A stretch of DNA of 63,966 bases from Chiloscyllium plagiosum (taxonomy: Eukaryota): positions 97,343,644-97,407,609 of the forward strand of contig NC_057718.1 in assembly GCF_004010195.1 (NCBI RefSeq), given 5' to 3'. The notes under the pieces are model-generated. The model did not search any database. It was not told where the DNA came from and was given only the letters and a program-made list of their open reading frames with translations. The translations under genes were made by a program, and so were the position numbers. Positions 10,180 through 63,966 of the stretch are shown here, in pieces; the first letter of the stretch is position 1, and every line of letters starts with the position of its first letter.

Positions 10180-10540
10180 GTCACACAACACGAGGTTGTA
10201 GTCCAACAGGTTTATTTGAAATCACAAAGCTGGCGAAGGAGCAGCTGTGTGGCTTCTGACGTTGTCCACCCCAGTCCAATGCCGGCACCTTCACATCAGG
10301 AAATAATGGCAAACGTGAGGACTGCAGATGCTGGAAATCAGAGTCTAGATGATCTATCACCTTCATCCCCACCTCCTATTGTACTCTTGGCTACCTTCTC
10401 CCCATCCCCACCCCCTTCCCATTTATCTCTCCACCCTGGAGGCTCCCTGCCTTCATTCCTGATGAACGGCTTTTGCCCAAAACGTCGATTTTCCTGCTCC
10501 TCGGCCTGCTGTTCTTTTCCAGCACCACTCTAATCTAGGC
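10180..10540. mobile_element. Two adjacent Penelope-like terminal-repeat relics
   Basis: 10180-10295 matches the 19557 family ('cacaacacgaggttgtagtccaacaggtttatt'). 10310-10540 matches the 'actgcagatgctgg...cctgatgaa.ggcttttgccc.aaacgtcg' family. Confidence 0.7.
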
Positions 10541-10998
10541 TCAGAAAATAACAGGACAGCCACTGAGAGCAGGACCTACCCAGAGAACTGGGAAGTACAG
10601 AGAGCATCATTCTGTTTCAAGTTTTCCGGGGATGTGGGCAGCACTGGCCAAGCCAACCTGTCCTACATGGCCGTGAAGGTGGTGGAAATGAGCTGTCCCC
10701 ACCAGTTTCTGGGGTATAGGGGTATAGGTGGTGCTGCTTGGAAGAGAATTTGAGGATTTTGACCCAGCGGCCATTTAACTCCAAGTTCTGTGGATTGGAG
10801 GGGAACCTGTAGCTGGTGGTGTTCCCATGCTTCTGCTGCCCTTATCTTTCTTGTTGGTCAATGGGCAGTTTTGGAAGTAGCTGGTGATTTTTTTCTCCCC
10901 CCAAGGTGATAGCAGAACAGGTGGGCTGAGCCAAAGGTTCGTGACTCCCATTGGCTTTCTTTCTCTTTTTTGCAATTTTTTTCAGCCCTTTTTCTTTC

Positions 10999-11309
10999 AG
11001 AATCATAGAATCTCTGCAGTGTGTGAGCATCAACCATCTGGAGAGTATCCCACCTAGACCCAGCCCCCTGCCCGATCCCTGTAATCCTGCATTTCCCATG
11101 GCTGACCCACTGAGCCTACACATCCCTGGACACTATGGGCAGCTTAGCATGGTCAATCCCACTTAACCTTCACATCTTTGGACTGTGGGAGGAAACCGGA
11201 GCTCCCAGAGGAAACCCACGCAGACACAGGGAGAATATGTCAACTCCTCACAGTTGCCTGAGGGTGGAACCGATGCTGGGTCCCTGGCGCAGTGAGGCAG
11301 CAGTACTAA
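10999..11309 (-). mobile_element. HE1 SINE
   Basis: V-domain and tail on the minus strand. Confidence 0.9.
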
Positions 11310-11629
11310 TCAAATGGGAACTCTCTAGATGGATTGGCAAGGTGCCTCTGATAGTGCACCACATTATTATTAAACTGTGTCCCAGTCACTGATGAACACC
11401 TCTCTTCCGTTGGTCAACCTGTATTCACCAATCACTCTGCACCCGGAAATAGAACTGAACCCATTTCGAAGCCTGTTTGTCCAGCGTGCACCCACTCGGG
11501 TTTTGAATGTGTATTCCTATTCACCCCACGGTTTCATGCTAATGTTGAGTTCTGACGCATTGCCACACAGGGACCAACATGAGCATGCACCAAACATGGC
11601 TGGACATCCTATCAAGGGAGACTCGCATC

Positions 11630-11960
11630 AGCCAAGAGGTTTTGGGGAAGATTTGTAGCTCAGGTTGTGGATCAGGTTGCTCGCTGAGCTGTTGGGTTTG
11701 TTCGCAGATGTTTCATCATCATGCTAGGTAACATCATCAGTGAGCCTCCAGTGAAGCATTGGTGTTCTGTCCTGCTTGATATTAAGGTGTCTCGGTTTGT
11801 TGTGGTGGGTGATATCATTTCCGGTTCTGTTTCTGGTAAATGGGATCCAGATCGATATGTTTGTTGTTGGAGTTCCCAGTTTGAATGCCAGGCCTCTAGG
11901 AATTCCCACGAGTGTCTTTATTTGGCCTTTCCCAGGTTGGGTGCATTGTCCCAGTCAAAC
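11630..11960 (-). mobile_element. Penelope-like element 3' end (GIY-YIG endonuclease C-terminus plus pLTR)
   Basis: Minus strand translates FDWDNAPNLGKAK*RHSWEFLEAWHSN..NKHIDLDPIY, followed by a hammerhead-like CTGATGA...GAAACATC. Confidence 0.85.
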
Positions 11961-12047
11961 CTGTCAAACCTGAGACTACACAAAGTCTTCCTCATATCTT
12001 CCTATCCACGACAAGGACGTGTAGGTGTGTGTGTGTGTCTGTGTGTA

Positions 12048-13008
12048 ATAGAGTCACAGAGATGTACAACACGGAAACAGACCCTTCAGTACAACTCATC
12101 CATGTCGACCAGATATCCTAAATCAATCTAGTCCCATTTGCCGGCACTTGGCCCATATCCCTCGAAACTCTTCCTATTCATATACCCTTCCAAATGCCTT
12201 TTAAATGCTAATTAAACCAGCCTCCACCACTTCCTTTGGCAGCTCATTCCATACACGTACCACCCTCTTGTGTGAAAAAGTTGCCCCTTAGGTTTCTTTT
12301 ATATCTTTCCCCTCTCACCCTAAACCTATGCCCTCTAGTTCTGGTCTCCCCAACCCCAGGGAAAAGACTTTGTCTATTTAATCTATCCATGCCCCTCATA
12401 ATTTTATAAACCTCCATAAAGTCACCCCTCAGCCTCCGGCACCAGGGAAAACAGCCCAGCATGTTCAACCTCTCCCTATAGCTCAAATCCTCCAATCCTA
12501 GCAACATTCTTGTAAATCTTTTCTGAAACCTTTCAAGTTTCACAACATCCTTCTGATGGGAAGGAGACCAGAATTGTACGCAATATTCCAACAGTGGCTT
12601 AACCGATGTCCTGTACAGCCACAAATGACCTCTCAACTCCTGTACTCAATACTCTGATCAATAAAGGAAAGTATACCAAACGCCTTCTTCACTATCCTAT
12701 CTACCTGTAACTAAAATTTCAAGGAGCTGTGAACCTGCAGTCCAAGGTCTCTTTGTTCAGTAACACTCCCTAGGACCTTACCATTAAGTGTATAAGTCCT
12801 GCTCTGATTTGTTTTCCCAAAATGCAGCACCTCGCATTTATCTAAATTAAACTCCTTCTGCCACTCCTGTGCCCATTGGCCCATCTGATCCAGATCCTGT
12901 TGTACTCTGAGGTAACCTTCTTCGCTGTTCACTACACCTCCAATTTTGGTGTCATCTGCAAACTTACTAACTATACCTCCTATATTCACTTCCAAATCAT
13001 TTATATAA
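12048..13008 (-). mobile_element. HER1/CR1 LINE, 5'-truncated (~960 bp)
   Basis: YINDLEVNIGGIVSKFADDTKIGG... and LEYCVQFWSP...RRLRGD. 3' UTR present. Confidence 0.95.
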
Positions 13009-13969
13009 ACCATGCACTGGTCACAGGTGTGTGTGTGTGTGTGTACTGCCAATGTCCAAGCCTTGAGTACAGCATATAATAACGACGGAACTATTAAAAC
13101 TCATTGTGACATGAAATCTCAGTGCAATTCCACAACTCAAGACTGTATGAACCTTTGGAAGCCAAGGCAACTTGCTTTTCATAAAATCTTTGTCCTTGCT
13201 TATGATTAAGGTCACCTATTCCTTTCCTAAACCCAGTTTAAAGCATCATCCCTTTTCTCATTTTCTGCCTTTCAATTTGGCAGAAAACACAGTTAGATAT
13301 AAAATGGTAAAAAGGAGTTTTATCTACCCCATTTGTCTTAGAAATGTGTCATGCCTATTTGGTGATGTTGCTTAATAGGGGAATTAGTTCATGGTGCATC
13401 CTTTTTTATTGTCTATCAGATGTAAGTCTAACTTTGAATATTTCTGAATCAAAAACGATAGTCAGTGACTCATAGCTTCCACTGCTCAGGAAATATTGCA
13501 AAAGAGTAGGAGGAATTGAAAGACTCAATTCCCTTTATGACACAGGAGAATTGATTCATTTTATTTTCATAGATTTCCTTGACTCTTGCCTGACCCTTTT
13601 AAACCCAAACATGGTACTTGCCAATTGATGCATCAGTTTCAGAGTTGAATTTGAAATCCATGTTGCTGAAGGAGTATTTATTGTTAACTTCCTGATATGC
13701 GTTGCTGGTGAAATGTCCTGTTCATGAATCAGCAGGCACCTGATGCAAAAAACAAAAAATTGCAGCAACTTTGTGTTGATGTACCAATTGCCCAGTTTTT
13801 GATTGGGATTTGTGGATGTGCTGCCACCAATCCTCCTTTCTGGACTTTGTTTGTGTTAAGGCTGAACCACAACTGACTCTTAAGAAGAACAGGCACTTGC
13901 CTTAACAGTAAGATCTAGTATATTGCATGACCACAGTACCACATGTTACGTTGGCTTATTAGGACTTTT

Positions 13970-14269
13970 TAGATTACATTACAGTGTGGAAACAGGCCCT
14001 TCAGCCCAACAAGTCCACATCGACCCGCCGAAGCGTAACCCACCCATACCCCTACATTAACCCCTTACCTAACACTACGGGCAATTTAGCATGGCCAATT
14101 CACCTGATCTGCACATCTTTGGACTGTGGGAGGAAACCGGAGCACCCGGAGGAAACCCACGCAGACACGGGGAGAACGTGCAAACAGTCAGTCGCCTGAG
14201 TCGGGAATTGAACCCGGGTCTCTGGCGCTGTGAGGCAGCAGTGCTAACCACTGTGCCACCGTGCTGCCC
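13970..14269 (-). mobile_element. HE1 SINE, young
   Basis: Full length; very similar to the 9475 copy. Confidence 0.95.
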
Positions 14270-17594: not shown

Positions 17595-18365
17595 ATAAAT
17601 TCATAAGATGTAGGAGCCGAATTAGACCATTCGGCCCATTGAGTCTGCTCTGCCAGTCAATCATGGCTGATATGCTCCTCACCCCCATTTTCTTGCCTTC
17701 TCCCCATATCCCTTCAACCCATCACCAATTAAAAATCTGCCTAACTCCTCCTTAAATTTACTCACTGTCCCAGCAGCCACCGCAGTTTGGGGTAGGGAAT
17801 TCCACAGATTCACAACCCTTTGGGAGAAGTATTTTCTCCTCAGCTCTGTTTTAAATTTGCTCACCCCTCATCCTAAGACTATAACCTCTCACCCTAGAAT
17901 GCCCACAAGAGGAAGCACCCGCTGCATGTCTATTTTATCCACACCTATCATCATCATGAATACCTCGATTTGATCTCCTCTTATTCTTCTAAATTCCAGG
18001 GAGTACAGGCCTAACCTTAGGGGTGGCATGATGGCTCAGTGGTTAGCACTGCTGCCTTACAGCAGCAGCGACCTGGATTCGATTCCCACCTCAGGCAACT
18101 ATCTGTGTGGAGTTTGCACATTTTCCTCGTATCTGTGTGGGTTTCCTCTGGGTGCTCCGGTTTCCTCCCACAATCCAAAGGTGTGTAATTCAGGTGAATT
18201 GGCCGTGCTAAATTGCCCGTCGTGTTCGGTCCAGTTGTCAGGGGTAAATGTAGGGTAGGGGAATGGCTCTGGGTGGGTTGCTCTTCGGAGGGTCGGTGTG
18301 GACTTGTTGGACTGAATGGCCTGTTTCTATACTGCAGGGAATATAAACTGTTCGATCTCTCTGTG
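17595..18365 (-). mobile_element. CR1 LINE 3' end containing an HE1 insertion
   Basis: ORF FKTELRRKYFSQRVVNLWNSLPQ. Host resumes after HE1 at 'actgttcgatctctct'. Confidence 0.85.
18020..18342 (+). mobile_element. HE1 SINE
   Basis: Full head, V-domain and tail. Confidence 0.9.
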
Positions 18366-19320: not shown

Positions 19321-19556
19321 GTGATTCAGGGATATCTCACTCTTCAATCATTTGGGGAGGTTGAAAGATTTTGAGTCAAAATGTAAAAGCATTTGCCCTG
19401 TAGTAGAAAAGGTTAGTGCCAGTTAACTCAGTGGCTCCTTTGTTGTTTAATGGTACAAGGGAGTTATAGGAAATAAAAGTTACACTCTAGAAAACCGCAT
19501 ATCATTCATTCAGAACACAGTTCACTCAACTGTTTACAAGTACACTTTATGAATAA

Positions 19557-19770
19557 AGTTAAAAATCACACAACACCAGGTTATAATCCAACAGGTCTGT
19601 TTGGAAGCACTAGCTTTCGGAGCGCTGCTCCTTCATCAGGTGATTGTCAATGATGAAGGAGCGTCGCTCCGAAAGCTAGTGCTTCCAAATAAACCTGCTG
19701 GACTATAACCTGGTGTTGGGTGATTTTTAACTTTGTCCACCCCAGACCAACACCGGCTCCTCCACATCGT
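19557..19770. mobile_element. Fold-back Penelope-like terminal-repeat element
   Basis: Inverted arms ~19557-19638 and ~19651-19732 ('aaaaatcacacaacaccaggttata...' / '...tataacctggtgttgggtgatttttaa'). Confidence 0.85.
19608..19642 (-). ncRNA. Minimal type I hammerhead ribozyme motif (PLE-associated)
   Basis: Minus strand: CAC-CUGAUGA-A-GGAGC(AGC)GCUCC-GAA-AGCU-A-GUG. Complete core, 5-bp stem II, palindromic AGCU helix III, CAC/GUG stem I. Confidence 0.7.
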
Positions 19771-20604: not shown

Positions 20605-21295
20605 TGATTTTGATCTTGATTGATTTATTGTCATGTGTACCTAAGTAGTGTGAAAGCTTTGTTTACAAGCAGTACAGTCAGATTATAGTAAGCAAGGCCA
20701 CACAGATCACAGGGTGAAAAAAAAACTAAATAGAGGTATACAAGTCACATCAAACAGAGCGTGTGCACTAGCCAAGATCAATATTAGCAACATCAGCATT
20801 ATTTGAAGTTACAGAGTCCATTCATCACTCTAATAACATCAGGGAAGAAGCTGTTCCTGAACCTTTTGGTGCATGTGTTCGGGCTTCTGTATCTTCTGCC
20901 TGACGGAAGAGGTTGTGGGAGAGCATTACTGAAGTGGCAGGGGTCTTTGATGATGTTGACAGCCTTTCCGCGGCAGCGAGCCATGTAAATGGAGTCTGTG
21001 CGTGGAAGTTTGGCTTCTGTGATGGTCTGGGCTGTACACACCACCCTCTGTAGTTTCTTACGGTCCTGGGCAAAGCAGTTGCCATACCAGGCCGTTATGC
21101 ACTTGTACCATATGCTCTCAGTGGTGCATCTGTAGAAGTTGGTGAGGGTCATTATGGATTTCCTGAGCCACCTGAAGAAGAAGAGGCGTTGTTGTGCCTT
21201 CTTGACCATTTCATCAACATGGGAAATCCAGGACAGGTTGTTGGTTATTGTCACTCTTAGAAACTTGACGCTCTCCACCCTCTCAGCCTCAGCAC
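20605..21295 (-). mobile_element. Rex-Babar LINE 3' end
   Basis: ORF 20799-21365 reads ERVESVKFLRVTITNNLSW...KKAQQRLFF...ITAWYGNC...LPSGRRYRS...RFRNSFFP. Confidence 0.9.
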
Positions 21296-21489
21296 CGTTC
21301 TCCTCCCTTCTTTTTAAAATGTTTGGTGCTTTTGCTGATTGCAGCTGGTACTGCACTGACTGCATTGCTGTATGTACTCAGAATTCCAGCCTCTGCAATC
21401 TAGAGGAACACGTGCAATAGGCACATGGGAGCACCACCAGTTACACCTTGTCCTCCAGATCTCACACTATCCTGCTTTATGCAGCAGAT

Positions 21490-21855: not shown

Positions 21856-23496
21856 TACATGCTGTTGTCTATCACATCTGTGTTCTGTGTAAGAGAAGGA
21901 ATGATAAATTGTCATGGGAACCATTGCTGAGGATGTTCCTCTTGGCTTTGGCACATGGGGACACTGACAATGGATTGGAGGAATTCAGACGCTTTGGATA
22001 TCAACATGAAACCCAGGCATCAGTGAGAGGAACTCAGCAGAGAAGTGATGTTCCCTGATGGGAAAAGCATTCCTCCCTTCAGAACACCACAGGCACTTCC
22101 TACCAGACAGTTCCTAAGTAAATAGATGCAGACTGCCAGCCAGGCGACTTGAAGTTCGATGTGAATTGAAGAAACAACAAATAAATCAAATACAAATGGA
22201 TAAAAGCACAGTGAAAAGCAATGGGAAGAATCACTTCACATGGAAACCAGACCAGCCATCTTGGGGAGAATTCAACTTGAGAACATTTGTGTTTCAATTT
22301 TAATCACTGGAAGCTTTTGAATTTTCTCAGTGCAGTTTCCCAGTGTAGACCATATAGAGTCTCCTGTTGTATTTTTGTAACGTACTTATTATACATTGGA
22401 AAGGAAGGAAGAAACTTGGGGGATGGGAGTGATTTACAAGAAAGATGAGTATCTTGACTGTATTACATACAGGAAAGTGGGTTGCACATTGAAATCGAAG
22501 AGAGAATGTGTGGAGGGCTGGATGTGAATAACAAAGGAACAATTTAAGGGAAGGCTTTACAAGCGCTTAAGGGAGTCAGGAATTTCAGAGGCTGCTAGGT
22601 TTCAGTGGAGCATAGACATTGACATGGTCTGAATGGCCAGACTCTACGTAATAATCTGTGTCACATTTGCCCAATAGAAATTGGAACAAAGTCAAGTGCA
22701 TAGCGGATGAATGTTATCAGTAACAGGAGGCAGCGGGGATGAAGGAATGGGGACAGAGAATAGAAAAGAAAAATGCCAGGAAGAAATGAAAGAGAAACAG
22801 AGCGTAATAAAGGTGGACCGATAAGGAAAGCAAACTGAAGAGTTAAAATAATGGGAGGTGTCTCTTTAAAGGAATTGAAGAGACGTTTATCCATGTCGTT
22901 CATTTCATTTGAGGGGTCACTGGTTGGAAACGTGAAGACTTTGCTCTTTGTTCGACAGAAATTCCTGAGTGGGTACAGAGACCGTGATGGCTTGAGGAGG
23001 CTGAGTGTAGCCAGCCCCTCCTGCGTGGGAAACCACAAAGGGTAACATTGTGCTGCATAAACCTAGCACCCTTGACAACAGAATGAGTATTCACTTGGTG
23101 CCATCCCACTCAGATGTGATGTCATCCTTGACAGTCAGATAGGCCTTTCATTTTAAAACAAAAAGATTTGACTGATAGTTTTGCAATTAACATATCATTA
23201 TATTGAGGCCCCTATCCCTCCACCAAGTAATATTTGCACCACACGTGTGCTGGGCATGACCCCTTGCAGAAAAAAAGACAACCATCTGCCTTTAACTCAA
23301 TGGCATTACCGTCAATGATTCCCCCCCCGACCCCATCATCAACTTCCTGTGGGCTACCATCAATCAGAACCTAAACTGGACCAGTTAGATCAATACCATG
23401 GTGACAGAGGCAGATTACTAAGGGGTCTTGTGGTGCAGTGGATGTGTCCCTCCCTCTAAACCAGTAGGCTCAAGTTCCACCAGAGTGCGTCATATC

Positions 23497-23825
23497 ATTA
23501 GATTAGATTCCCTACAGTATGGAAACAAGCCCTTTGGCCTAACAAGTCCACACAAACCCTCTGAAGAGCAACCAACCCAGACCCATTCCCCCACCCTATA
23601 TTTATCCCTGACTAATGCACCTCTCACTATGGGCAATTTAGCATGGCCAATTTACCTGACCTGCACATCTTTGGACTGTGGGAGGAAACCAGGGCACCCG
23701 GAGGAAACCCACGCAGACACGGGGAGAATGTGCAAACTCCACACAGACAGTCACCCAAGGCAGGAATCGAACCCGGGTCCCTGGCACTGTGAGGCAGCAG
23801 TGCTAACCACTGAGCCACCGTGCCT
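23497..23825 (-). mobile_element. HE1 SINE
   Basis: Full length. Confidence 0.95.
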
Positions 23826-23858: not shown

Positions 23859-24605
23859 TACAGTCCTTTCTGCTATTACATATGTTTCGTCAACATGAAT
23901 TAATCGTAACGTGATTGATTGAACAGGTGAACGCTGTTTGTAAAACGCAAACTTCCATATACATGTGTTGGCTATCACGTGATTCCATCCCCAACACTTT
24001 AGGTATTGTGGTGTGCAGAGGAATACGATATTTACACCAACAGACTCTCCACATCAACATCGTATGTTCAGTTGGCTCACGTCCCTTGTTGTGAAGTGCT
24101 TTTTGAGAGATACTCCCTAATTTTTGATATTTTTTTACAAATTTGTTGTGTTACCCATCCACTTCTGCATTAACTATTTTTCATCCTAACCCTGTAACTA
24201 CAACTGAATCTGAATGACCCTCAACCCCTGTCTTAATAACTTGGCAACCTGAAAACCACCCTCCTGCCATCCAACAAGTTATCTCCAAATTTTTTCAAGG
24301 TAAATTTACTGTATTATTTCATTATTAGATATGCATTTAACATTTATTTAAATTATGTTATCCTTTGTGTTAGGCCAACTGCTATATTTGTTTTGATTTT
24401 GAATAATATTTTTGGACTGCTCCTCGGATGCTCTTCCAGCACCACTAATCCAGAATCTGGTTTCCAGCATCTGCAGTCATTGTTTTTACCTAATATTTTT
24501 GGTGGTCTGCCCCAAATCTATTTTTTCCAATAGCCGTTATTTTTATTACATGGTTTTCTACAGCGCGAAATCACACTAACTATTGTGTTTTGGAGGACAG
24601 GCTGT
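23859..24605. mobile_element. Possible old pogo/Tigger-like non-autonomous DNA element
   Basis: Begins 'ta|cagtcctttctgctattac' and ends with degenerate '...gacaggctg|tg'. A PLE fragment sits inside at 24415-24490. Confidence 0.4.
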
Positions 24606-26085: not shown

Positions 26086-27254
26086 TTTTTAACATCCATA
26101 ATTGTGCACTCCCCAGTTGGTGTCGTGGAATGGATTAGGTTCTCTAGCTGATATCCAGACCAGGGATTACCTGCAGCCCTTACCGGTATAATTTAGCCCA
26201 CATCTAGTAGGAGAACAAGTCAAGTGGATGGGATTATCAAGAAAGCTGTCATTGGAGAAGGCTGCATTGCCTTGGATGGTACCATATGTAGCATTCTATG
26301 GCTTGAGATCTCCAGCAGAAACAGATCTTGCCCACTTCATTTCAATCTAATATTGTTCAATTCAATTCAAATTTATGGTCCATTTGGAAATGCACTGAGA
26401 ATTCATTGGTCATTCATCAAAAGCTACAGATAATGAACAATGGAAGAGAAAACTTACATCATCACATCAAAAGTCTGACGCTGATTACATACATCCTAAA
26501 GATTGCTTGAGGTCTGTGAGGTAGCAAATTTGCAAGTTCATATTTCAAGTCAGCTGACATTTAGTCAAAATTTATAAATTAGATATTTAATAGTTTATAA
26601 ACAGCTTTCAGCTCTGAGAAAAGATAATCAATACAAAGCATTATAATGTAGGTCATTCTCTCTCCACAGATGCTGCCAGCATTGCTGAGCATTTCCAGGT
26701 TTTTATGCTTTGACTTGCTCTCTCTCAGCTTGGGCAGTAACTTTTGTTTGCTGTCCGTACCAGGGTTGTGTTGCCCTTCCCAATGGGACAGTCCTGGCTC
26801 TACTTAAAGGAGGCTTCATAACCTGTCAGAGAGTGGCCGCTCATTAAAAAGCAAAATACCGCGGGTTCTAGAAATCTGAAATAAAAACTGGAAGTGCCAG
26901 AGCAACTCAGCAGGTCTGACAGTTTGGGTGGAGAGAGAAACAGCGTTAACATTTGACTTGTGTGACCTATATTCCAAGGTGGCCACTCATTCCAGAGAAG
27001 TACAATCATTCTCTTAGTGCCTGGGGAATTTGAACCTTGGCAGTGATCGGAGGGAAGGAAATTAAAATTAATTCTGAAGGAGGAAGCAACAGCAAAAGAA
27101 GGGGCAAGTGCAAAGGATTCCCTTCAACATGGCTCTGAGGGTCTCTGGGAAGGCAGGGCTCTGTCACTCTCCAATCTGCTAAAGCCTGTATGTAGGTAAT
27201 CTCTGCCACGAATGTATGATAACCTACTAATCTCAACAAACCCCACAGCGTCAG

Positions 27255-27775
27255 CATGGCTCACTGAATTACACTCTCTGAGTCTCCAGGCTCAAGCCCC
27301 ACTTCACCACAGACCCAGTGCAGTGCTGCTGGAGTGCTGTACTGTCAGAGATGCTAACCATGTTGGGCCTGGCGATAAATTGAGGTCTCATCTCCCTGCT
27401 GATGTGATGGACCCCACAGCATTATTTTGTAGAAGGAAGGGGTGTTGTCTCTGGTGTTCCTGGCCAGTATTTATCTTTCAATCAACATCACAAAAAAAAA
27501 CCACCCAAGACCATTGCTGTTTTGGGGGAGTTTACAGTGTACAAGTTGGCACCTACGTTTACAAAGTTACAGCTCCGAAAGTACCTCATTGGCTGCAAAA
27601 TGCCATGGAGAAAGTGAGGCCTGCGGATGCTGCACATCAGAGTTGAAAAGCACAGCAGGTCAGGCAGCATCCGAGGAGGAGGAAAGTCAACGTTTCGGGC
27701 ATAAGCCTTCATCAGGAATGGCTTGAGACATCAGGTGGCTCTGAAAAATGCTACGTAAATGCAAACCTTTTATTT
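27255..27775 (+). mobile_element. DeuSINE/SacSINE1-like element with a PLE terminal-repeat insertion (27615-27720)
   Basis: 'gagtgctgtactgtcagag...tcctggccagtatttatc...cattggctgcaaaatg...taaatgcaa'. The insert is 'aaagcacagcaggtcaggcagc...ccttcatcaggaat'. Confidence 0.7.
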
Positions 27776-31551: not shown

Positions 31552-32039
31552 ATCGCTTTGACAAAAGCCAAGAAATGGATTGTGAGCTCTTCCAACATGT
31601 GTACTGTCACAAATCTTTGTCGACTGACCAGAGTTACAGGGATAAATATTTACAGGCCTTATATGCCTATGCCCGAAAGCACGTTGAAGCTTAATGAACA
31701 CGGTACATTCAAATGAAAGGCTGCTGTGTATCCAAAGTGACAGCACTGACAGATACACCACAGGGCCTGGTGTGACACAAAGACGAGAGGACAAACTGTC
31801 ATCTTTCGGTCACCCTCTTGTTAACAGTATTGCATGTGAATCATATCTTTCAGACTGTGATAAATTTTGATGTTTTGTCGCATGGTTGCAGAGGTTGAGT
31901 GATTAAGTATGTTCAAGGCTGAGAGAAATAGATATTTAATCAATAAGGATTTCAAGGGCATGGGGAAAAGGCAGGAAAGTGGAGCCAAAGTTGATTAGTA
32001 ATCTAAAACAAAGAACAGTCCATGCAGGAGATCCTCAAC

Positions 32040-32195
32040 AAAACCAGAAATGGCTTGAGAAACTCAGCAGGTCTGGCAGCATCTGTGGAGAGAAACTAGT
32101 TCTCAAGAAAGGTCGCTGGACTTGAAATGTTAACTCTGTCTTTCTGTCTCCACAGATGCTGCCAGACCTGCTGAGTTTTTCTAGCTATTTCCAGA
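32040..32195. mobile_element. Fold-back PLE-derived short element inside a CR1 3' UTR
   Basis: 'aaactcagcaggtctggcagcatctgtggagag' / 'tctccacagatgctgccagacctgctgagttt'. Confidence 0.8.
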
Positions 32196-32671
32196 TCAGA
32201 GCAGATAGGCTATAATCTCATTGGATGGCAGAGCAGACTCGATGGGCTGAATGACCTACCGCTACTCCTTTGTCTTATGGTCTTAACGAGGGCGACCTGA
32301 GTGATTGTCCCAACCATTGAGGCACCACTCAGCAGGGCATCTTGGTAAATGTATTGGCTGGTCATGCTGGTGTTGGACAGCAGGTGTTGGCTGAACCCAT
32401 CCGCCAGCATGGGTTTCCAAAGTGGAATATCTGCAATCAGCAAGATCTTCCCATCACCATCAAACTAACAACTGCAAGTTCCTCTCCCAGTCACTCACCA
32501 TTCTGACTTTTGGAAATATTTCAGAGTTCCTTCAGCATCACTGGGTCATAATCCTGGAATTCCCTCCCTAATGGTGCTGCTGGTGTACCTATCTACACCA
32601 AATAGACTGCCGCGGTCCAAAAGGTTATCTCACCCCCTTGTTGAGGGCAATTAGGGAAGGACAGTAAATGC

Positions 32672-33085
32672 TGGCGAAAGTGAGTACTGCAGATGCTGGA
32701 GTTCAGAGCCACGATTAGAGTGGTGCTGGAAAATCATTGCAGGTCAGGCAGCATCCGAGGAGCAGGAAAATCGATATTTCAGGCAAAAACCCTTCCTCAG
32801 GAATGAGGCTGGGAGTCTTGGGAGTGGAGAGATAAATGGGAGGGGGTGATACTGGGGAGAAGGTAGCTAAGAGTGCAAAAGATGGATAGAGGTGGGGGTA
32901 AAGGTGATAGGTCAGAGAGGAGGGTGGAGCGGATAGGTGGGAAGGAAGATTGACAGATGAGACAAGTCATGAGGCTAGTGCTGAGCTGGAAGGTTGGAAC
33001 TGGGGTAAGGTGGGGGGAAGGGGAAATGAGGAAACTGGTGAAGACCACATTGATGCCCTGGGGTTGAAGGGTTCCGAGGCAGAAG
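32672..33085 (-). mobile_element. Penelope-like element 3' end plus pLTR
   Basis: ORF 32797-33147 contains FCLGTLQPQGINVVFTSFLISP (PLE endonuclease C-terminus). Hammerhead-like CTGAGGA..GAAA follows. Confidence 0.85.
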
Positions 33086-33875
33086 AAGCTGGCAGAAGAC
33101 GCAGTGATGCTCAAATCCTGTGAATGAATGAGAAATGTCATGATCAAAGGAAGCTGCCTCCATTGGATTCATCAAGAACATTCACCCATTTGAGTAGACT
33201 CTTGAAATGGCTCCCAAAGATTGACTGCTCACCAGGGGTTCAGCCGAATCACATCAATTCACCACAACATAATGACCAAGGATAACCATGGCCAGAGTGT
33301 CCGATCATCCTTCCTCTTCCAGGGCAACCCTGTTTTTGAGTTGGTTGCCCACATGAGGCAGATTGTTTGCTGCTCTGCCCCTACTTTTTGATAATTTAAT
33401 GATCATTTAAGAGACACACTATGAATGAACATAGCACTGTCCCCTTGTTGAGCTGCTCCCAAATTCAGGATAACATCTCCTTCCCCACTGCCGAATTCAG
33501 CCAAGCAAGCCCCTCGCCCCACAGTCTGGTTTCGTTTGACGACCAGCATCTCAAAGATGAACCTCATGGTCCAGGATGTTGCTATACTGCCTCCTATCAG
33601 CTTTGACGGTGTGTGATGCTTGAAGCTGGTGATTGTTTCCTGGAGGTTCTGCTACCACCTGAATCTGTCACTTGACGCTGAAGTTAGGACATGCATCAAA
33701 ACTGCTTTGTCAAAGCTGTACAAAGAGAATATGGAGCCACAACAGCTTGTCTAGGAACACCAAACAGCAAGACTAGCAAGCCGGTGTCCTCAGTGTACTC
33801 CTCCACAGAGATGAGACCTGTACAATGCACGCTGAGCAGGAGAAAGGGTTGAACAGTTTGACGTATCATCAACAT

Positions 33876-34015
33876 CGAGTCGAGAGTGTGGTGCTGGAAA
33901 AGCACAGTAGGCCAGGCTGCATCCGAGGAGCAGGAGAATCGATGTTTTGGGCATAAGCCCTTTTCCAGCACTACACTCTCGACTATGATCTCCAGCATCT
34001 TCGGTCCTCATTTTC
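33876..34015. mobile_element. Internally deleted fold-back PLE terminal repeat
   Basis: 'gtcgagagtgtggtgctggaaaag' / 'cttttccagcactacactctcgac'. Confidence 0.8.
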
Positions 34016-36861: not shown

Positions 36862-37160
36862 TACATTCCCAGATCCAACTCTCCAATTCGGCACCACCCT
36901 CATGAACTGTCCTACCTGTCCATCTTCCTTCCCACCTATCTGCTCCTCTCCGACCTATCACCTTCACCCCCCACCCCTCCATCTACCTATCACCTTCCCA
37001 GCTACCTTCCTCCCAGCCCCACCCCCTCTCATTGATCTATCAGCCCCCTCAGGGCCTCCCCACATGCCTGATGAAGGGCTTATGCCCGAAACATCAACTC
37101 TCCTGCTCCTCGGATGCTGCCTGACCTGCTGTGCTTTTCCAGCGCCACACTTTTCGACCC
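36862..37160 (+). mobile_element. Penelope-like pLTR
   Basis: Homologous to 32700-33000 (-). CTGATGA-A-GGGC(TTAT)GCCC-GAAA-CATC at 37068-37095. Confidence 0.85.
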
Positions 37161-38021
37161 TGTACATTTTCAGCAATACATCCCTGCTCATGTCTTCGAA
37201 TCCTATTGCTATGAAGGCCAACACACCATTTGCCTTCTTCATCACCTGCTGTGTTTGCTTGCATCTGACTCCTTGTGTTTCTCGCTTTCTGGTTGCAAGG
37301 TACAGGAGAAGTTGTGCTATCTGGCATGCATAGAAGAATCACAGTGGTGTCAGTAAACCAGAAATGCCAGTTGATGGGAGGAATACTGTCTCTGGACGCA
37401 ATCAAATCCCATTCAAACATTTAAACCTTGTCTGTAGGTATTGAGCCTGGGGATCACCTTACATGGCACATGTTGAAATCGAAAGCTGATGTACAACAGC
37501 ATGTGATTATGTATGATATACAGAAAGAGCTTTAGTTGCCTTTAGCTGTGCTGTTAATAATTATTAAAATGGACAACTGAAGCTTGACTTGCTGAGGTGA
37601 ACGGGTGTGACGCTGGAAAAGCACAGCAGGTCAGGCAGCATTCACTCGATCTCAGTCTGATCACAGTGGTGAGTATTCAAGTCCACTTTACCTCATCTTT
37701 TGAAGGCATTTTTAAAACCTATTGTTCTGTATGATGTAGGCAGGGCTGGCAAGACAATCATTGTCTAACCTTGTTGTCCAAAGAAGCTGGCATTGAATGG
37801 CCTCGTTAGACCAATTGGTCAATACAATTAAACTATTCCCACAGGTGCTGTTAGGTTGTGAGTTCTAGGATTCCAGCAACAAAGAAGGAGCAGCGATATA
37901 TTTGCAAGTCAAGAAGGTGCATGATTTGGAGGTGAACATGCAGGAGATGTTTGCTCCCACATCCCTCTTTTCCTTCACGATAGGGAGCCTGTGTGAGGTG
38001 CAGGATTCCTGGCCTGTGATC

Positions 38022-38150
38022 TAGAGTCAAGAGTGTGGTGCTGGAAAAGCACAGCAGGTCAGGCAGCCTCCGAGGAGCAGGTGAATCGATGTTTCGGGCA
38101 TAAGCCCTTCCAGCACCACGCTCTCGACTCTGATCTCCACCATCTGCAGC
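38022..38150. mobile_element. Internally deleted fold-back PLE terminal repeat
   Basis: 'gagtgtggtgctggaa' / 'ttccagcaccacgctc'. Confidence 0.8.
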
Positions 38151-38789
38151 CCACAGTTTCTTTTATAGCGAATCCAGTTCAATTTCTGGTCAGCGGTGAG
38201 ACCCAGGATATTGATTGTAGAGGAATCTTTGATGGTAATGTCAATGGTAACCAATGTGAATTGTCATAACTTACCATCTAGTTTACTAATAGCCTTAGAA
38301 AAAAAAATCAAATACTAATCCTGATTGGTCTACATGTGACCCAAAACCTACATTAATATGTTGACTCTTATTGCATTCTGAAATGGGCTAACAGGCCACA
38401 AAGTCACTGCCAGTTAGGAATAGGTAACAAATGACCATATCGCGCACAACAAATGAGAAGCAACATCTTTACTGTTCTCTTGAAAGGACAGAGTGCAATT
38501 GGTTTGATGCCTCATCTGAAAACCAGTATCACTGATAGTGCATTACTCCCTCAGAACTGCGTTCCATTCAGTTGACTGGGACTTGGAGTTTTCCCCCTTG
38601 TGAGCAATGAGAGGTACAGGAAATTCACAGCTCTAACATTTGCAAACCCAGTGAACTTTATCTCCATTCTCCCAACTTTTCCTTTATTGCAACTGTTAGT
38701 GGTTGATATTGAGTTTAGATCAGAATGGTGCTGGAAAAGCACAGCAGCTCAAGCAGCATCCGAGAAGTAGGAAAATATGGAGTCCTGGA

Positions 38790-41104: not shown

Positions 41105-41325
41105 GGTGAAAGTGAGGACTGCAGATGCTGGAGATCAGAGTCAAGATTAGAGTGGTGCTGGAAAAGCACAGCAGGTCAGGCAGCATCTGAGGAGCAGGAT
41201 GAATCGACATTTCGGGCATCATTCCGAAGGGATGAAAGGGCTTTTGCTCGAAATGTTGATTTTCCTGCTCCTCAGATGCTGCCTGACCTGCTGTGCTTTT
41301 CCAGCACCCCTCTAATCTTGACTCA
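41105..41325. mobile_element. Fold-back PLE terminal-repeat element
   Basis: ~80-bp inverted arms 'gagtcaagattagagtggtgctggaaaagcacagcaggtcaggcagcatctgaggagcagg' / 'cctgctcctcagatgctgcctgacctgctgtgcttttccagcacccctctaatcttgactc'. Confidence 0.85.
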
Positions 41326-43814: not shown

Positions 43815-44469
43815 AGAGGTGGACTGAGTGGAGAGTGTCAAGCTCCTGGGAGTGGTCATCCATAACAAGCTTTCTTGGACTCTTCATGTGGACGCACTGG
43901 TTACAAAGGCCCAACAACGTCTCTTCTTCCTCAGGCAGCTGAGGAAATTTGGCATGATGACGAATGCCCTTGCCAACTTTTATAGGCGTGCCATCGAGAG
44001 CATTCTATCTGGATGTATCACTACCTGGTATGGAAACTGTACCATTCAAGATGGGAGACGGTTACAGAGAGTGGTGAGCTCGGCCCAGACAATCACAAAG
44101 GCCAACCTCCCATCTACAGAATCCATCTACCAGGCCGGCTGTCGGGGAAAGGCCGCCAGCATTCTCAAAGATCCATCCCACCCTTGCAGTGTTTTTCTAC
44201 AACCTCTACATCACAGAGAAGGTACAGAAGCCTGAACACACGCACCAGCCGGTTTCGTAACAGTTTCTACCCTACTGTTGTTAGAATACTGAATGGCCTC
44301 ACAAACTCTTAATATTCGCCGTTACCTGTGTTTTTGGTTTTGCTGCTGTTTACCTATTATTTACTTAGCTATGCTACTTAACTCTGTGACCTGCCTGTAT
44401 TGCTCACAAGACAAAGCTTTTCACTGTGCCTCAGTACACGTGACAATGAATTCAGTTCAATTCAGTTCA
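43815..44469 (+). mobile_element. Rex-Babar LINE 3' end
   Basis: ESVKLLGVVIHNKLSW...KAQQRLFFLRQLRKFG...GCITTWYGNC...RRYRSLNTRTSRFRNSFYP; (TTCAR)n tail. Confidence 0.92.
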
Positions 44470-45410: not shown

Positions 45411-45896
45411 AAATAATCATTATAACACGATGTGCTATCCAGTGCTTACCATCATGTTATATTTTGATGTCTGAATATCAATTATTGTGGTTAGGGTAGA
45501 ATTCTGCCATCAATGCCAGCAGTACTGGTCCAAAGGCTGTTCAGCAATCTGCGGTGGAGGATGGGCCAAGGATAAGTCTCTCTTGAAATTGTGCTTGTTT
45601 TAGGTAACAAGGTCATTTATTACGTAAGAACAACTATATCCGGAATACATTAATTCTTTGTTTTATTAAGAAAACCAACAAGGTGAAGAAGACATTTGTG
45701 AAGAAGGCCATGTCAGATTTTAGCAGGTTTTCTATCCAGAGGCTGTGTGGCAACGTCAGACTGGGTGGGTCTTAGAGTAGCTCAAATATTAACTCTTTAA
45801 GAACCATTTAACTTCTGGAAGAGTAATGCCACTTGGACAATGCAAACGTGTCTGAGCAATTCTGTGGACTGTCTCCATTCTTTTCCCATCATCACC

Positions 45897-46020
45897 ATTT
45901 CTGAGGAAGGGTCACAGGACCCGAAACGTGAACTTTGATTTCTCTTCACAGACGCTGCCAGACCTGGTGAGCTTCTGCAGCAACTTCTGTTTTTGATTCG
46001 AACTTCAGCAACTGCGTTTC
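45897..46020 (+). mobile_element. PLE terminal repeat with hammerhead-like core
   Basis: CTGAGGA-A-GGGTC(ACAG)GACCC-GAAA-CGTG-AAC at 45901-45933. Confidence 0.75.
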
Positions 46021-46834: not shown

Positions 46835-47010
46835 CATGGATGCTGGAAATCAGAAACAAAAACAGACATTTGCTGGAAAAGTTCTGCAGGTCTGGCAGCT
46901 TCTCTGGAGAGAAAGCAGAGTTAACCTTTCAGTTCTGAAGAAGGGTCACTGTTCCCGAAGCATTAACCCTGTTGTCTCTCCATAGATACTGAGCGTTTCC
47001 AGAACTTTTG
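46835..47010. mobile_element. Fold-back PLE-derived short element
   Basis: 'gcaggtctggcagc...gagttaacc' then 'agttctgaagaagggtcact...cccgaagcattaacc'. Confidence 0.75.
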
Positions 47011-47187
47011 GCTTCTCAGTTGAGTTGATAAATTCTTTTCCAAAACTTCATTAACTTTCACCAAACGGATCTTAATTCTACCATTTACCGAGATATTTAA
47101 GATGGAGCAGATGAATTAAATAGAGTAAAGACCTTTCTAACTTACCATGGGAAGCAAACTCAAGAGTGGTCTAAAACTGCCCATTTA

Positions 47188-52912: not shown

Positions 52913-52926
52913 GATGGCTAGATACT

Positions 52927-53251: not shown

Positions 53252-53929
53252 CTGTGCCAACCCTTAGAACATTAGTCGGGGCCTTTAGATTACTAACCCA
53301 ATGACATGACAACTACATCACTGTCTCCCCATTACTGGAGCATATTTACAACACCCTGGTTTTAGACTCCTACGCAATGAAAGCCCCTCCTTATGTCAAT
53401 GCTATTGTGCCCTCCTTAATGCTAATTAACTTGCTCTAGTCACAGTCATTTGAGAGGAGTCGAAATCTGCAAAATATCTCCTGATAGTTCCTTGCAATAT
53501 TCAATAGTTTAATTAATCTGACTGTATTTGTCTGTTCACTGATCTAAGTCAACTTTGATTAGTTGCTGAAATCTGTAAGTGGTGACAAAAAGCTGTAGTA
53601 ACCTTGCAGATGGTCCCAGGAACAGACACAAAGATTGCTGGAGAAACGCAGAAGGTCTGGCAGCATCTGTGGAGAGAGAAATAGTTAACTGAAGTTTCTC
53701 CAACATTTTCTGTGTTTGAGTTAGAATTCCAGAATCTGCAGTATTTTGCTTTTACTGTAAGGTTGCAGGGTGTGGGCTGATAGTATGGTTCAGAAATCCT
53801 GTGAGTACAGACATACCTTAAAGTATTGGAAATGTAACTGTTGTAAACTAACGATGAGTGTCATCTCTGCATTGCTGTGAGATAGATCAGATGCAGGTAA
53901 CCCCAGCATTTTGAACATTTACTTTACGC

Positions 53930-54744
53930 AAAGACCTACGTTAGTATATTAAAGACCTACATTAGTATATTGAAGACCTACATTGGTATATTAAAGACCT
54001 ACATTAGTATACTAAAGACCTACACTGGTATATTAAAAATCTGCATTGATAAAATAAAGACCTATATTAGTATATTAAAGACCTACATTAGTATACTAAA
54101 GACCCACATTAGTATATTGAAGACCTACCTTGGTATATTAAAGACCTACATTAATATACTAAAGACCTATATTAGTATATTAAAGACCTACATTAGTATA
54201 TTAAAGACCTATATTAGTACACTAAAGACCCACATTAGTATATTGAAGACCTACATTGGTATATTAAACACCTACATTAGTATACTAAAGACCCACATTA
54301 GTATATTGAAGACCTACATTGGTATATTAAAGACCTTCATTAGTATATTAAAGACCCATATTAGTATATTTAGGACCTACATTAGTATACTAAAGATCCA
54401 CATTAGTATATTGAAGACCTACATTGGTATACTAAAGACCTACATTAGTATACTAAAGACCTACATTAGTATACTAAAGATCTACATTAGTATACTAAAG
54501 GCCTACATTAGTATACTAAAGACCCACATTAGTATATTGAAGACCTACATTAGTATATTGAAGACCTACATTGGTATATTAAAGACCTACATTAATATAT
54601 TAAAGACCTATATTAGTATACTAAAAACCTACATTAGTGTATTGAAGACCTACATTAGTATATTGAAGACCTACATTGGTAGATTAAAGACCTACATTGG
54701 TATATTAAAGACCTACATTAGTATATTGAAGACCTACATTAGTA
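53930..54744. repeat. 21-bp minisatellite, ~39 units
   Basis: Consensus AAAGACCTACATTAGTATATT; substitutions only, no visible indels. Confidence 0.97.
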
Positions 54745-56484: not shown

Positions 56485-57413
56485 TATCATCATCGGCTGT
56501 CCCTCAGCTCATGGTTGACCTTTATTCAGGGTTGTGGGATTTTGTTCTGTGTCTTCACAGTCTGATTCTCCACCCATTGGGCAAATGGGACTGAATGAGG
56601 ATAGGAGATCTAGGGTTGCAAGAATTCCTTCCCTCCCTGCACTGCCTCCTGACTAAGACTGTGAACATGATACAGCTTTGTCAACACGTTTGACTGTTTT
56701 GAATGATTGATAACAGCCGCTCCTTCTGGTTATTACGGTCAATGGTGCTGCGCTTCAAAGAGAGCTCAGGAATGTCTTTCAGAGTGTTCTCTTTGTCATC
56801 TCCTGCAATGTTGGCCATCTGAGAGGAGTGGGCTGCAGGAGATGTTTTTCAACCATCCAGACACAGCAGGCATTGCTTTGAAGTGGATTTGGGAGCTGGG
56901 AGTGTGGTGTTGGAAAAGCACAGCAGGTCAGGCAGCATCCGAGGAGCAGGAAAATCGACGTTTCATCCATAGGCCCTTCATCAGGAATGTCGATTTTCCT
57001 CCTCCTCGGATGACCTGCTGTGCTTTTCCAGCACCACACTCTCGAGTCTAATCTCCAGCATCTGCAGTCCTCACTTTCGCCCTGGATTTTGGAGGTGTTT
57101 TGCCAAAGGTGTATGGAGCCAGCTCCAACAGTGATGCAGGCATAAGTTCAGTAGTCCTCCCATTGTATCGGGTGGAGCCATTGCTGATGGACTTCGTCTC
57201 AAACTGTTGTGCTTCACTGTTATACATTCCAGGTAGCAGTATAGAACAGGACAGGGGTGACAGCAACTGTGTGCACTAAGAAAGATCTTGGTGACCAGCA
57301 GAGGCATCTGTTGTCAACTACTGGCTGATGTTGTTTGCCAAAGGTTGAGCTTGGACAGCCGACTCAGTGCTGGATCTGCTCATCAGTGTCTTGAGTGGGA
57401 GATCTGAAATAGG
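56485..57413 (-). mobile_element. Old RTE LINE, 3' segment (interrupted by a PLE hairpin)
   Basis: Minus strand: YFRSPTQDTDEQIQH*V ~ YLGS.LS..DIDEEIQHRI, then decayed post-RT motifs and a short (GAT)n tail at ~56485. Confidence 0.6.
56898..57082. mobile_element. Fold-back PLE terminal-repeat element
   Basis: 'gagtgtggtgttggaaaagcacagcaggtca' / 'tgacctgctgtgcttttccagcaccacactc'. Confidence 0.85.
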
Positions 57414-57428
57414 CCCCTACAGATCCTC

Positions 57429-57727
57429 AGGGCAAACAACCCCACTGCTCTGTGGATGACCACTTCAACTCCCCCTCCCACACCACCAAAGACATGCAAG
57501 TCCTGGGCCTCCTCCACCACCAAATCATAGCCACCTGATGCCTGGAGGAGGAACTCCTCATCTTCTGCCTTGGGACCCTACAACCACACAGTATCAACAT
57601 CGATTTCACCAGTTTCCTCATCTCCCCACCGACGTGACTGATGAAGGGCTCATGTCCGTAATGTTGACTCTCCTGCTCCTCAGATGCTGCCTGACCTGCT
57701 GTGCTTTTCTAGCACCACACATTTTGA
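57429..57727 (+). mobile_element. Penelope-like element 3' end with probable 13-bp TSD
   Basis: HFNSPSHTTKDMQVLGLLHHQ....LEEELLIFCLGTLQPHSINIDFTSF. Flanks cctacagatcctc (57416-57428) / cctacaaattctc (57728-57740). Confidence 0.85.
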
Positions 57728-61628: not shown

Positions 61629-62576
61629 TCCTAAACATTGAATGGTCAGAAATTAGGTTTGTTTTGAGTATGATGTAGTCCTTACAATGCCACAGACAGG
61701 AGTTTAGGTTCTCCTAGAGCCACTGAAGACAGGTTGCCTGCATCTTCGTTAATGAACAGGACATGGGCATTGGAAAGGCCAAAATGTGTTACCCATCCCC
61801 AAACTGGTGAGCTTGCTCAGCCAAAGATCCCCAAACTGGGGAGCTTGCTCAACCTTTTCAGAGGGCAGTTAAGAGTCACGCCAAGGTCAGACCAAGTAAT
61901 GATAGCAGAGTTCCTTTCCTGAAGAAATGAGTACACTGGATGGGTTTTTAACAACAATCAGTGAGAGCTGTCATCACTACCAAAGGTAACTTTAAGAAAT
62001 TCCAGACTAATTCACTGATGGAAATGCCACTAAATGTCAGAGATAGGGTTGAACTTCTGTCCCCAGTGAAGCAGACTGGGAGTTAGGCTTCTAATCTGGT
62101 GTGCATGACCACTATGCTACCATCTCAGCACTGAGTTGTAGTTGTTCTTGCTAACCTTCTTGGTTAGAAACAAGTAGATAACACTCTCTGCTTGAAATTA
62201 AGGCATGTTTTCCCGTGAGTGGGTCTGGTAAGGTCACATATTAAATTTGAATCTCTAAGTATTGGCAAACTCACATAGCATAAAAATTGAAACGCTATTG
62301 TCACTATATCCTCTCCCAGAGCCCCCATCATCAGCATAAATGTCACCTATCCCCAGTTATTTTCAGTTCCAACAAAGGGTCATTGGATTCGAAATGTTAC
62401 CTCTACTCCTCAGGTGCAGCCAGGCCAGCTGAATTTCTCTAGCACTTTCTATTTGTGTTTCAGATTTTCTGCATCCACAGTCCTTTTGTTTTATTACACA
62501 CTTTCAAATTACCTATTCAGTGTTAGCACATCGGTCCATTTTCCATGGTGAATTTATCTACTACTTTGCAACTTGA

Positions 62577-62910
62577 GTTAAAAATCACACAACACCAGGT
62601 TTATTTGGAAGTACTAGCTTTCGGAGCACTGCTACTTCATCAGGTAGCTGTGGAACAGGATCATAAGACACAGAATTTATAACAAAAGATTACAGTGTCA
62701 TGCAACTGAAATGATATATTGAACAAACCCAGATTGCTGTTAAGTCTTTCAGCTTTTAGAATGGGTTGCAGGTTTCAGTTCATTAATATGTAAATCCCAG
62801 GTCTTCTTTTAAGTCACATTCTAGGGATAACTTAAGGTTTTATAAAAAAAAGTGACATCTCAGCTCAGACAATGCATTAAAGGTGTGAGTTTAGAGTCCA
62901 ACTGTATCCC
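62577..62910 (-). mobile_element. Penelope-like pLTR (19557 family) with hammerhead motif at 62612-62646
   Basis: 'ttaaaaatcacacaacaccagg'. Minus strand UAC-CUGAUGA-A-GUAGC(AGU)GCUCC-GAA-AGCU-A-GUA. Confidence 0.75.
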
Positions 62911-63169
62911 AGACATCTTTGCAACATTAAACATTCATTGTGGCTGCTGGTCCATTGTTTACCAACATTTCCTATAATTGTTCCTATCCAATCTTCCCTG
63001 CCATTGTGACAAAGGGCACAATCAAATCTAACTTCGCTCTGTGCGCAGGGGGACATGGGTAGCCTGGCTGATACATCTCTACCTGCTCAGAATTTTAGTG
63101 GTAACAGCCCTATCCCGGGTGAGTTCACCTACTTCAGCACCGAACATTGATCCAACCGCAATGTTTCTG

Positions 63170-63328
63170 AAAACAAAAAAAATGCTGGAGATCACAGCAT
63201 CTGTGGAGAGAGACCAAGCTAATGTTTCCAGTCTAAACTCGAAACATTAGCTTGCTTTCTCTCCATGGACGCTGTCTGACCTGCTGTGATTCAGTACAGA
63301 TTCCAGCATCTGTAGTAATTTGCTCCTA
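63170..63328. mobile_element. Fold-back PLE-derived short element
   Basis: 'ctgtggagagagaccaagctaatgtttc' / 'gaaacattagcttgctttctctccatgg'. Confidence 0.75.
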
Positions 63329-63679
63329 CATTGTAGAATCTTCCTGATATTTGTGCCTAATTTTCTTGTAAAGAAAAATTATTACAGTAATTTATTATCA
63401 TATTTGCAGCATTGCTCTGATTCAACTGCACCTGTTATAATCATTACTTTGCCAGTTATTAGCTTTCGCTAATAAAGTTGTGTTTGTCTCCCTTAATATC
63501 TGCTAAGCTGTTGAACTTCAGAAACTGATTTAAGTGCCACCCTTAAATTTCTTCCTGGATAATAAATTCACTGAGCTTTATTCTGCTTTTTCAAAGCTAT
63601 ATTTGAATTATACTTTCAGATTTATTCTTCTCCTCTTTAAAATCAGAATGCTCCTTCCTTAGTGTCTAACCAGCTGAAA

Positions 63680-63966
63680 GTCTGGTGAAGGGCTTTTGCC
63701 CGAAACGTCGATTCTCCTGCTCCTCAGGTGCTGCCTGACCTGCTGTGCATTTCCAGCACTATACTCTCAACTCTCCCACCCTGCCCCCTGTAAAAACACG
63801 ATCCCATATTCCCAATTCCTTCGCCTCCGCCGCATCTGCTCCCAGGAGGACCAATTCCAATAACGAACAACCCAGATGGCCTCCTTCTTCAAAGACCGCA
63901 ATTTCCCCTCAGACGTGGTTGATGATGCTCTCCACCGCATCTCCTCCACTTCCTGCTCCTCCGTCC
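63680..63966 (+). mobile_element. Penelope-like element: pLTR end followed by an RT C-terminal fragment (runs off the window)
   Basis: CTGGTGA-A-GGGC(TTTT)GCCC-GAAACGTC, then SHPAPCKNTIPYSQFLRLRRICSQEDQF..., typical of the PLE RT thumb. Confidence 0.88.

Follow-up and report, generated by a model that had tools for sequence, protein, structure and literature searches.

Minimal hammerhead motifs in Penelope-like retroelements of Chiloscyllium plagiosum and U6 fusions at their predicted cut site

A stretch of 63,966 nucleotides from Chiloscyllium plagiosum (contig NC_057718.1, positions 97,343,644 to 97,407,609; hereafter the window) contains numerous repeats with the core of a hammerhead ribozyme, which an earlier note on this DNA had assigned to four terminal-repeat families, A to D. 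Which elements carry these motifs, and do they cut RNA in the animal? The best explanation, held here with high confidence, is that they are minimal type-I hammerheads located in the pseudo-long terminal repeats (pseudo-LTRs) of four lineages of Penelope-like retroelements (PLEs), predicted to cut only as dimers, likely selected in the source elements and decaying once inserted. Minimal hammerheads with a palindromic helix III and compensatory families have been described from metazoan PLE pseudo-LTRs (Cervera and De la Pena, 2014; PMC4209133). Several covarying families are to be expected from a motif class that is already published; what is new is the set of lineages, the scale and the evidence from junctions.

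Hammerhead families and their carrier elements

All 11 hammerhead sites cited in the earlier note were recovered at their positions. An exact scan for CUGANGA-N-stem II-GAAA gave nine matches in the window, compared with 0, 0, 0, 1, 3 and 1 in six Markov-2 simulations, and families A to D account for seven of the nine; the remaining two (58896 and 46040) belong to no family and are taken as chance. With one mismatch tolerated, the scan approaches noise (35 window matches versus 10-22 simulated). Family profiles built from genome-wide copies detected 32 element ends across the window, 15 of A, 12 of B, 4 of C and 1 of D, and 18 of them include the motif itself, so that the previous figure of about ten motifs per 64 kb was an undercount; many of these ends are arranged head to head and meet at the hammerhead. 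The full descriptor, comprising core, stem II, palindrome, NUH triplet and 2 bp of stem I, is passed by only two of the 11 cited sites, 19639 (-) and 32800 (-), the latter relying on wobble pairs and a doubly decayed AUAU palindrome: the cited motifs exist, but most copies are damaged. Rfam returned no hammerhead in the window at E ≤ 5, which places these copies outside its covariance-model families; its miRNA-hairpin matches fall on inverted pairs by chance, and a weak U6 match (E 4.2, 12457-12565) lies inside another repeat. In 52 random 10-kb loci, a de novo scan found 37 exact-core matches in A to D and four outside any family, a split that argues against an abundant fifth family. One hammerhead-like motif outside A to D (type E; genome locus L004:2771-2806, minus strand), seen in a single copy, has stem II AGCA/UGCU, an AGCU palindrome and an imperfect stem I.

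The strings defining families A, B and C agree with genome-wide copies, apart from loop II of B, which is mostly ACYG and not ACWG. Helix III of D had been described as a palindrome; its ACAU is not palindromic and is the product of CpG decay of ACGU, the two palindrome positions of 29 D copies reading C in 21 and T in 7, and G in 10 and A in 17, respectively. The switch between ACGU and AGCU is consequently a single event separating C from A, B and D. The 3' flanks of A and B align in 474 of 900 pairs, against 0 of 900 for every other family pair. The four families are thus real but A and B are not independent; judged from these flanks, they are best regarded as sister lineages, and the four families as three independent DNA lineages.

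In each family the motif is located on the coding strand and follows a PLE gene encoding a reverse transcriptase (RT) and a GIY-YIG endonuclease, of Neptune type for A, B and C and of Poseidon type for D, and by this homology the carriers, unrecognised in the earlier note, are identified as PLEs. A profile of the PLE C-terminus, run over all genome loci retrieved (overlapping loci being counted more than once), gave 100 matches, and 85 of these (D 35, A 33, C 14, B 3) are followed within 1.2 kb by an end on the same strand; the GIY-YIG end lies ~450-650 nt upstream of the motif in C, ~200 nt in A and ~100 nt in D, and B has the fewest loci with a pseudo-LTR location, a related endonuclease accompanying it at few of them (L047/L185, L199, L035). 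In the window, endonuclease ends precede the motifs at 32800, 57638 and 11740, and an RT fragment follows 63682. Locus L121 has a family C motif on either side of an RT gene that has lost its endonuclease end; the motifs are 2,517 nt apart, and the upstream one lies ~120 nt before the ATG. The closest homologues of this gene are proteins of 720-1,400 aa, most of them annotated with RVT_1 and many with GIY-YIG, and the best (P0001, 55% identity) is an 881-aa RT and GIY-YIG protein with a Cys linker. Element identity is taken from such homologues rather than from a Pfam scan of nine single-copy fragments, in which nothing exceeded the cut-off (best RVT_1, E 0.004).

The linker, CX2-5CxxC before the endonuclease, is present in the A and C pieces and in P0001, leaves traces in B and is absent before the GIY-YIG of D (L109, L110, L112). 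Endonuclease pieces, some of them short or frameshifted, share 43-59% identity between A and B, 29-43% between A and C and 19-51% between D and the rest. Based on the pattern of linker and motifs rather than on an RT tree, A, B and C would belong to the Neptune clade and D to Penelope/Poseidon. These clades, as described by Craig et al. (2021; PMC8557442), show the same order of RT and C-terminal GIY-YIG, a corresponding distribution of the linker (A and C, traces in B, none in D), and partial tandems and inverted 5'-truncated partners like those seen here; Nematis likewise has a linker, in reduced form (PMC8557442).

Structure, copy number and decay

The motifs share with the PLE hammerheads of PMC4209133 the type-I topology without loop III, the palindrome (15.2-16.2), the extra base between 9 and 10.1 and the G10.1-C11.1 pair, and, at the genome level, several covarying families made up mostly of single truncated copies and opposite-strand pairs. 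In particular, the core CUGANGA and GAAA is accompanied by stem II in each family; the palindrome at 15.1-16.1 is followed by H at 17 (A ACGU-C, B ACGU-U, C AGCU-A, D ACGU-C), giving the triplets GUC in A, CUA in C and GUU in B; the unpaired base is A in families A to C and U in D; 10.1-11.1 is G-C in A to C and G-C or a decayed G.U in D; and a short stem I of 2-4 bp closes the fold, with just two contiguous pairs in A. Stem II has 4-6 bp here, as against 7-8 bp in the Schistosoma families of PMC4209133. Helix III, being a four-base palindrome without a loop, cannot close within one motif, and pairing of two motifs through the palindrome has been proposed for PLE hammerheads (PMC4209133; PMC6765202).

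Pairing was assessed with one natural copy per lineage, by a permutation across the four lineages that, unlike R-scape, leaves phylogeny out of account; pairs were counted structure-anchored on the core, as MAFFT shifts C and E by one column. Paired states occupy 38 of 40 pair cells (shuffle mean 23.8) and 15 of 16 at positions outside the descriptor (p = 5e-4; 11 of 12 without B, p = 0.012). Across lineages A to D, stem I reads C-G, U-A, C-G, A-U at 2.1/1.1 and U-A, U-A, A-U, C-G at 2.2/1.2, while the palindrome at 15.2/16.2 reads C-G, C-G, G-C, C-G. Pairing of stems I and II and H17 are thus retained in the families, stem II varies yet remains paired as the earlier note had it, and these counts support selection on structure in the source elements.

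The compensatory change noted in stem I of family C, CAC/GUG versus UAC/GUA, is real but confined to a minor subfamily, in which the wobble intermediate U.G is present. Among 13,190 copies with A17, U-A occurs in 106 and C.A in 220; U.G makes up ~8 per 100 as judged from the first 100 listed, and the resulting odds ratio of ~5 could be inflated by subfamily age. The first 100 listed of 770 copies with C, G or U at 17 comprise 80 C-G, 14 U-A, 5 U.G and 1 C.A (Fisher p = 4e-12), and all 14 U-A copies have U17. In family A, subfamilies differ at position 7, in loop II and in a mismatch at 1.3, while the stems and the palindrome vary by CpG transitions.

The very large genome-wide number anticipated from the window was borne out. 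Exact patterns match 16,919 times for A, 18,482 for C and 167 for B (a long, strict pattern), the D pattern yielded 3,331 candidates, 40 of which were scored, and reversed control patterns matched nowhere in the genome. Extrapolation to the 3.56-Gb genome was based on 65 10-kb loci at round coordinates (625,778 readable bases), in which the 3' flank alone identifies 144 ends (A 85, B 36, C 19, D 4); 40 copies have an exact core and stem II, and 18 (A 16, C 2) satisfy the full descriptor. Scaled up, these correspond to ~0.82 million ends (Poisson 0.69-0.95), ~0.23 million copies with exact core and stem II (0.16-0.30) and ~0.10 million full-descriptor copies (0.06-0.15), the intervals being too narrow because copies cluster. 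For comparison, PMC4209133 gives ~4,000 motifs for coelacanth and ~9,000 for Xenopus, with a descriptor of its own and by different methods, against ~0.1 million intact copies and 0.8 million remnants here. Two supplementary files of PMC4209133 contain no shark or skate term, and one Chondrichthyes genome was sampled in a 2026 preprint (10.64898/2026.07.22.740005). Each lineage thereby offers thousands of natural variants.

Inserted copies decay at CpGs and most are broken. In 64 A copies found through the 3' flank, the CpG positions of the palindrome keep C in 83% and G in 71%, and C17 is kept in 79%; non-CpG core positions are kept in 91-100%, like the flank. Since the core is kept no better than the flank, selection would have acted on source elements and not on inserted copies. 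That host selection maintains genomic copies as working ribozymes is very improbable: ~0.1 million of them would pass the full descriptor and family C sequence occurs in poly(A) RNA (run X20, below), but CpGs in the palindrome and beside G12 decay freely, the core behaves like the flank and nine of the 11 cited copies fail the descriptor. Source-element selection and the very large copy number survive from the earlier interpretation; the four families reduce to three independent lineages, and the palindrome switched once.

Insertion ends, U6 fusions and possible cutting

Insertions commonly begin just 5' of the core. Within -15 to +5 of C3 lie the 5' ends of 41 of 98 A, 19 of 44 B and 15 of 23 C copies, about half of them at inverted junctions (inverted partners count twice, and three A copies next to unreadable sequence are excluded); among non-inverted A copies only, 21 of 64 begin there, versus three in the next 35 nt. 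This boundary could be either the transcription start or a fold-back hotspot; the frequency of an untemplated G, as a cap would leave, at these junctions (A 18 of 46, B 6 of 28, C 6 of 17) does not decide between them. As 5' ends fall before the core with no excess at the cut, uncut RNA would be the usual template. Two A copies (38713-38776, minus strand, and one at L133) have their start no more than 1 nt from the predicted cut and lack U6, a background frequency. The 3' ends form two groups, at ~+80 and +110-125 in family A and at ~+80 and ~+120 in family C, which correspond to the pair of RT start sites by which the tail of green anole Poseidon is defined (Frangieh et al., 2024; PMC11167929). 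At L121 the longer 3' end coincides with the ATG of the open reading frame (ORF), and motif plus tail would therefore form the 5' leader of the downstream gene. The anole element is alike in its pseudo-LTR hammerhead, its main use of uncut RNA as template and its two 3' ends 30-40 nt apart; it differs in that its ORF starts inside stem II, whereas the family C ATG lies ~120 nt after the core, at the tail end, and in that the accessible portion of PMC11167929 reports neither a 5'-end pile-up before the core nor evidence of in vivo cleavage.

The same ends bear on whether short copies are non-autonomous retrozymes or MITE-like units amplifying through self-cleaved circular RNA, which we consider unlikely. 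Short copies are mostly 90-140 bp with a sharp 5' boundary, about half of them palindromic pairs, and the 2026 preprint cited above derives retrozymes from PLE pseudo-LTRs (10.64898/2026.07.22.740005). The units, however, do not end at the cut site, inverted junctions vary between pairs, ORF-bearing copies show the same subfamily variants, and the window holds no tandem motif array of the kind that defines non-LTR retrozymes.

Family C has a poly(A) signal ~10 nt beyond the predicted cut (L121:3431-3434; window 19685-19690 and 62597-62602). Run X20, a single poly(A) run whose organism is not shown to be this species, gave 2,627 aligned reads, mostly 90-95% alike; 442 and 350 of them have poly(A) attached 28-31 nt beyond the family C cut, behind AUUAAA/AAUAAA. 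Polyadenylated RNAs thus appear to carry the family C motif uncut. Because insertions reach beyond this poly(A) site, RT cannot prime at that tail. Within host genes, short C copies could provide portable poly(A) sites.

The evidence for cutting comes from fusions with U6 small nuclear RNA. A search for a U6 3' end followed by a family A flank, with 0-30 nt of spacing allowed, gave six matches, all six joined at the scissile bond, the element part beginning with the base that follows C17; they represent six A variants whose flanks are unrelated. One U6-family C fusion is joined at the first base after A17. In all seven (L226, L228-L233) the U6 piece terminates in five U, and U6 end and element share no sequence at the junction. 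Rfam recognised U6 on three of the five fusion loci scanned, the others being shorter U6 3' pieces that it does not score. At L230 an inverted partner repeats the fusion junction, and L233 contains repeated and inverted U6 pieces. U6-LINE-1 chimeras arise by RtcB ligation to a 5'-OH end (Moldovan et al., 2019; PMC6789731); they likewise join a five-U U6 end to retroelement RNA and are retrotransposed, but LINE-1 junctions are variably truncated, whereas those described here are fixed at the ribozyme cut site. A template jump at the cut end would require the same cut. A literature search, with most subscription papers outside its scope, found no published U6-Penelope hammerhead fusion. Rare as they are, these fusions at the predicted cut suggest occasional cleavage by the ribozymes in the germ line.

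Several observations weigh against this. CUA (C) and GUU (B) are weaker NUH triplets; hammerhead folds are marginal, B alone having the open-core fold as its minimum-energy monomer, and the palindrome duplex is predicted at just -1.7 to -2.5 kcal/mol. Genomic 5' ends at the family A cut site number 2 of 101 by best alignment and 0 of 98 on re-estimation, run X20 has no reported pile-up of family C RNA ends at the cut, and the C fusion search spanned 0-4 nt without a positional control. Anole hammerhead mutants insert normally in vitro (PMC11167929). The weak predicted folds and the X20 result, together with low published in vitro activity (PMC4209133) and, for the anole, the findings that the motif is not needed for insertion in vitro and that RNA-seq shows no ends at the site (PMC11167929), favour the view that the fold is kept for protein binding or RT pausing and no longer cuts in vivo. 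We regard this as possible but doubtful, as in all four lineages the catalytic bases are retained and position 17 is not G, and seven U6 fusions lie at the scissile bond without shared sequence.

Whether and why PLE hammerheads cut in vivo has been called unclear (PMC8557442; PMC4209133), and cutting was not seen in anole RNA (PMC11167929). In the mechanism that we propose for occasional germ-line cutting, two motifs would pair through ACGU or AGCU so that the core forms, and the RNA would be cut 3' of position 17, the downstream piece keeping a 5'-OH. Most insertions would nevertheless be copied from uncut RNA, with reverse transcription initiating at either of two positions ~50-95 nt beyond the cut site and frequently terminating immediately before the core, probably on reaching the RNA 5' end or by fold-back, which would yield the 90-140-bp solo copies and head-to-head pairs. 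Cutting would likely proceed at a low rate in the germ line, a downstream piece would occasionally be joined to the U6 3' end, and the chimera would then be retrotransposed. We think it probable, with moderate confidence, that the genome is a DNA record of the PLE hammerhead life cycle, consisting mostly of copies of an uncut leader, in which U6 fusions of two lineages reveal germ-line cutting and a 5'-OH ligation substrate, and that the C cut severs a poly(A) site 30 nt downstream; if so, this cut possibly limits the element's own mRNA. The fixed U6 junctions, the fixed 5' start and the nearby poly(A) site make in vivo cutting directly testable.

Element ends and other repeats of the window

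The family C end at 19547..19647 (-) contains a fully intact minimal hammerhead (19608-19642, predicted cut 19611/19610) and stands head to head with an inverted partner at 19651..19754 (+), with C3 changed to A, AAUAAA and a longer tail. A second C copy (62570..62890, -) has ~245 nt of 3' untranslated region (UTR), the UAC/GUA stem I and a stem II mismatch, and a remnant at 10171..10235 (-) comprises only the 3' flank. The single D copy (11634..11990, -) joins a Poseidon-type GIY-YIG C-terminal end to a short 3' UTR and a hammerhead at 11740 with both CpGs decayed.

Family A is represented by a copy with 3' UTR at 36870..37151 (+), in which core and stem II are intact, the palindrome has decayed to ACAU and stem I is broken; by a GIY-YIG C-terminal end with 3' UTR at 32691..33100 (-), whose hammerhead (32800) has a wobble stem II and the AUAU palindrome; and by an upstream pseudo-LTR with A6 changed to G at 63678..63966 (+), followed by an RT-thumb fragment from 63777, this element continuing beyond the window with a second A hammerhead ~840 nt further. 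At 57480..57723 (+) a GIY-YIG C-terminus runs directly into a decayed hammerhead (57638), the 3' UTR being deleted. The short copy at 27639..27720 (-) starts 4 nt before the core and has lost one stem II G, and that at 10340..10546 (+) has mutated G10.1 and G12. Two inverted pairs absent from the earlier note lie at 41123..41317, with the junction at the hammerhead, and at 56895..57063. A copy at 33886..33973 (-) is truncated within the core, and similar remnants lie at 38033-38110, 38713-38776 and 37607-37643 (all -) and 24416-24473 (+).

Family B includes a short copy at 45896..46004 (+) with intact core and stem II and G at 17 (no NUH), an inverted pair at 46845..47015 whose plus-strand copy (46935) has A15.1 changed to G, a decayed inverted pair at 32030..32196, and further remnants at 6286-6364, 26658-26711, 26871-26954, 53616-53698, 62364-62467 and 63180-63308. 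The interval 10171-10546 combines, nested within 400 nt, the A copy at 10459 with an inverted A remnant and a remnant of C, and ends of different PLE lineages are frequent neighbours in other genome loci too.

Among the other repeats, a tandem array of a 21-nt unit at 53930-54744 (38.8 copies, 85% match, with an open repetitive frame of 333 aa) is probably a minisatellite. Repeats of ~300 nt resembling short interspersed nuclear elements are dense, with more than 20 window copies on both strands (e.g., 642-950, 23495-23824 and 18018-18349). Decayed RT-like fragments occur at 12244-13100, 8267-8611, 20799-21377 and 43828-44235, which we take to be other long interspersed nuclear elements, CR1/L2-like.

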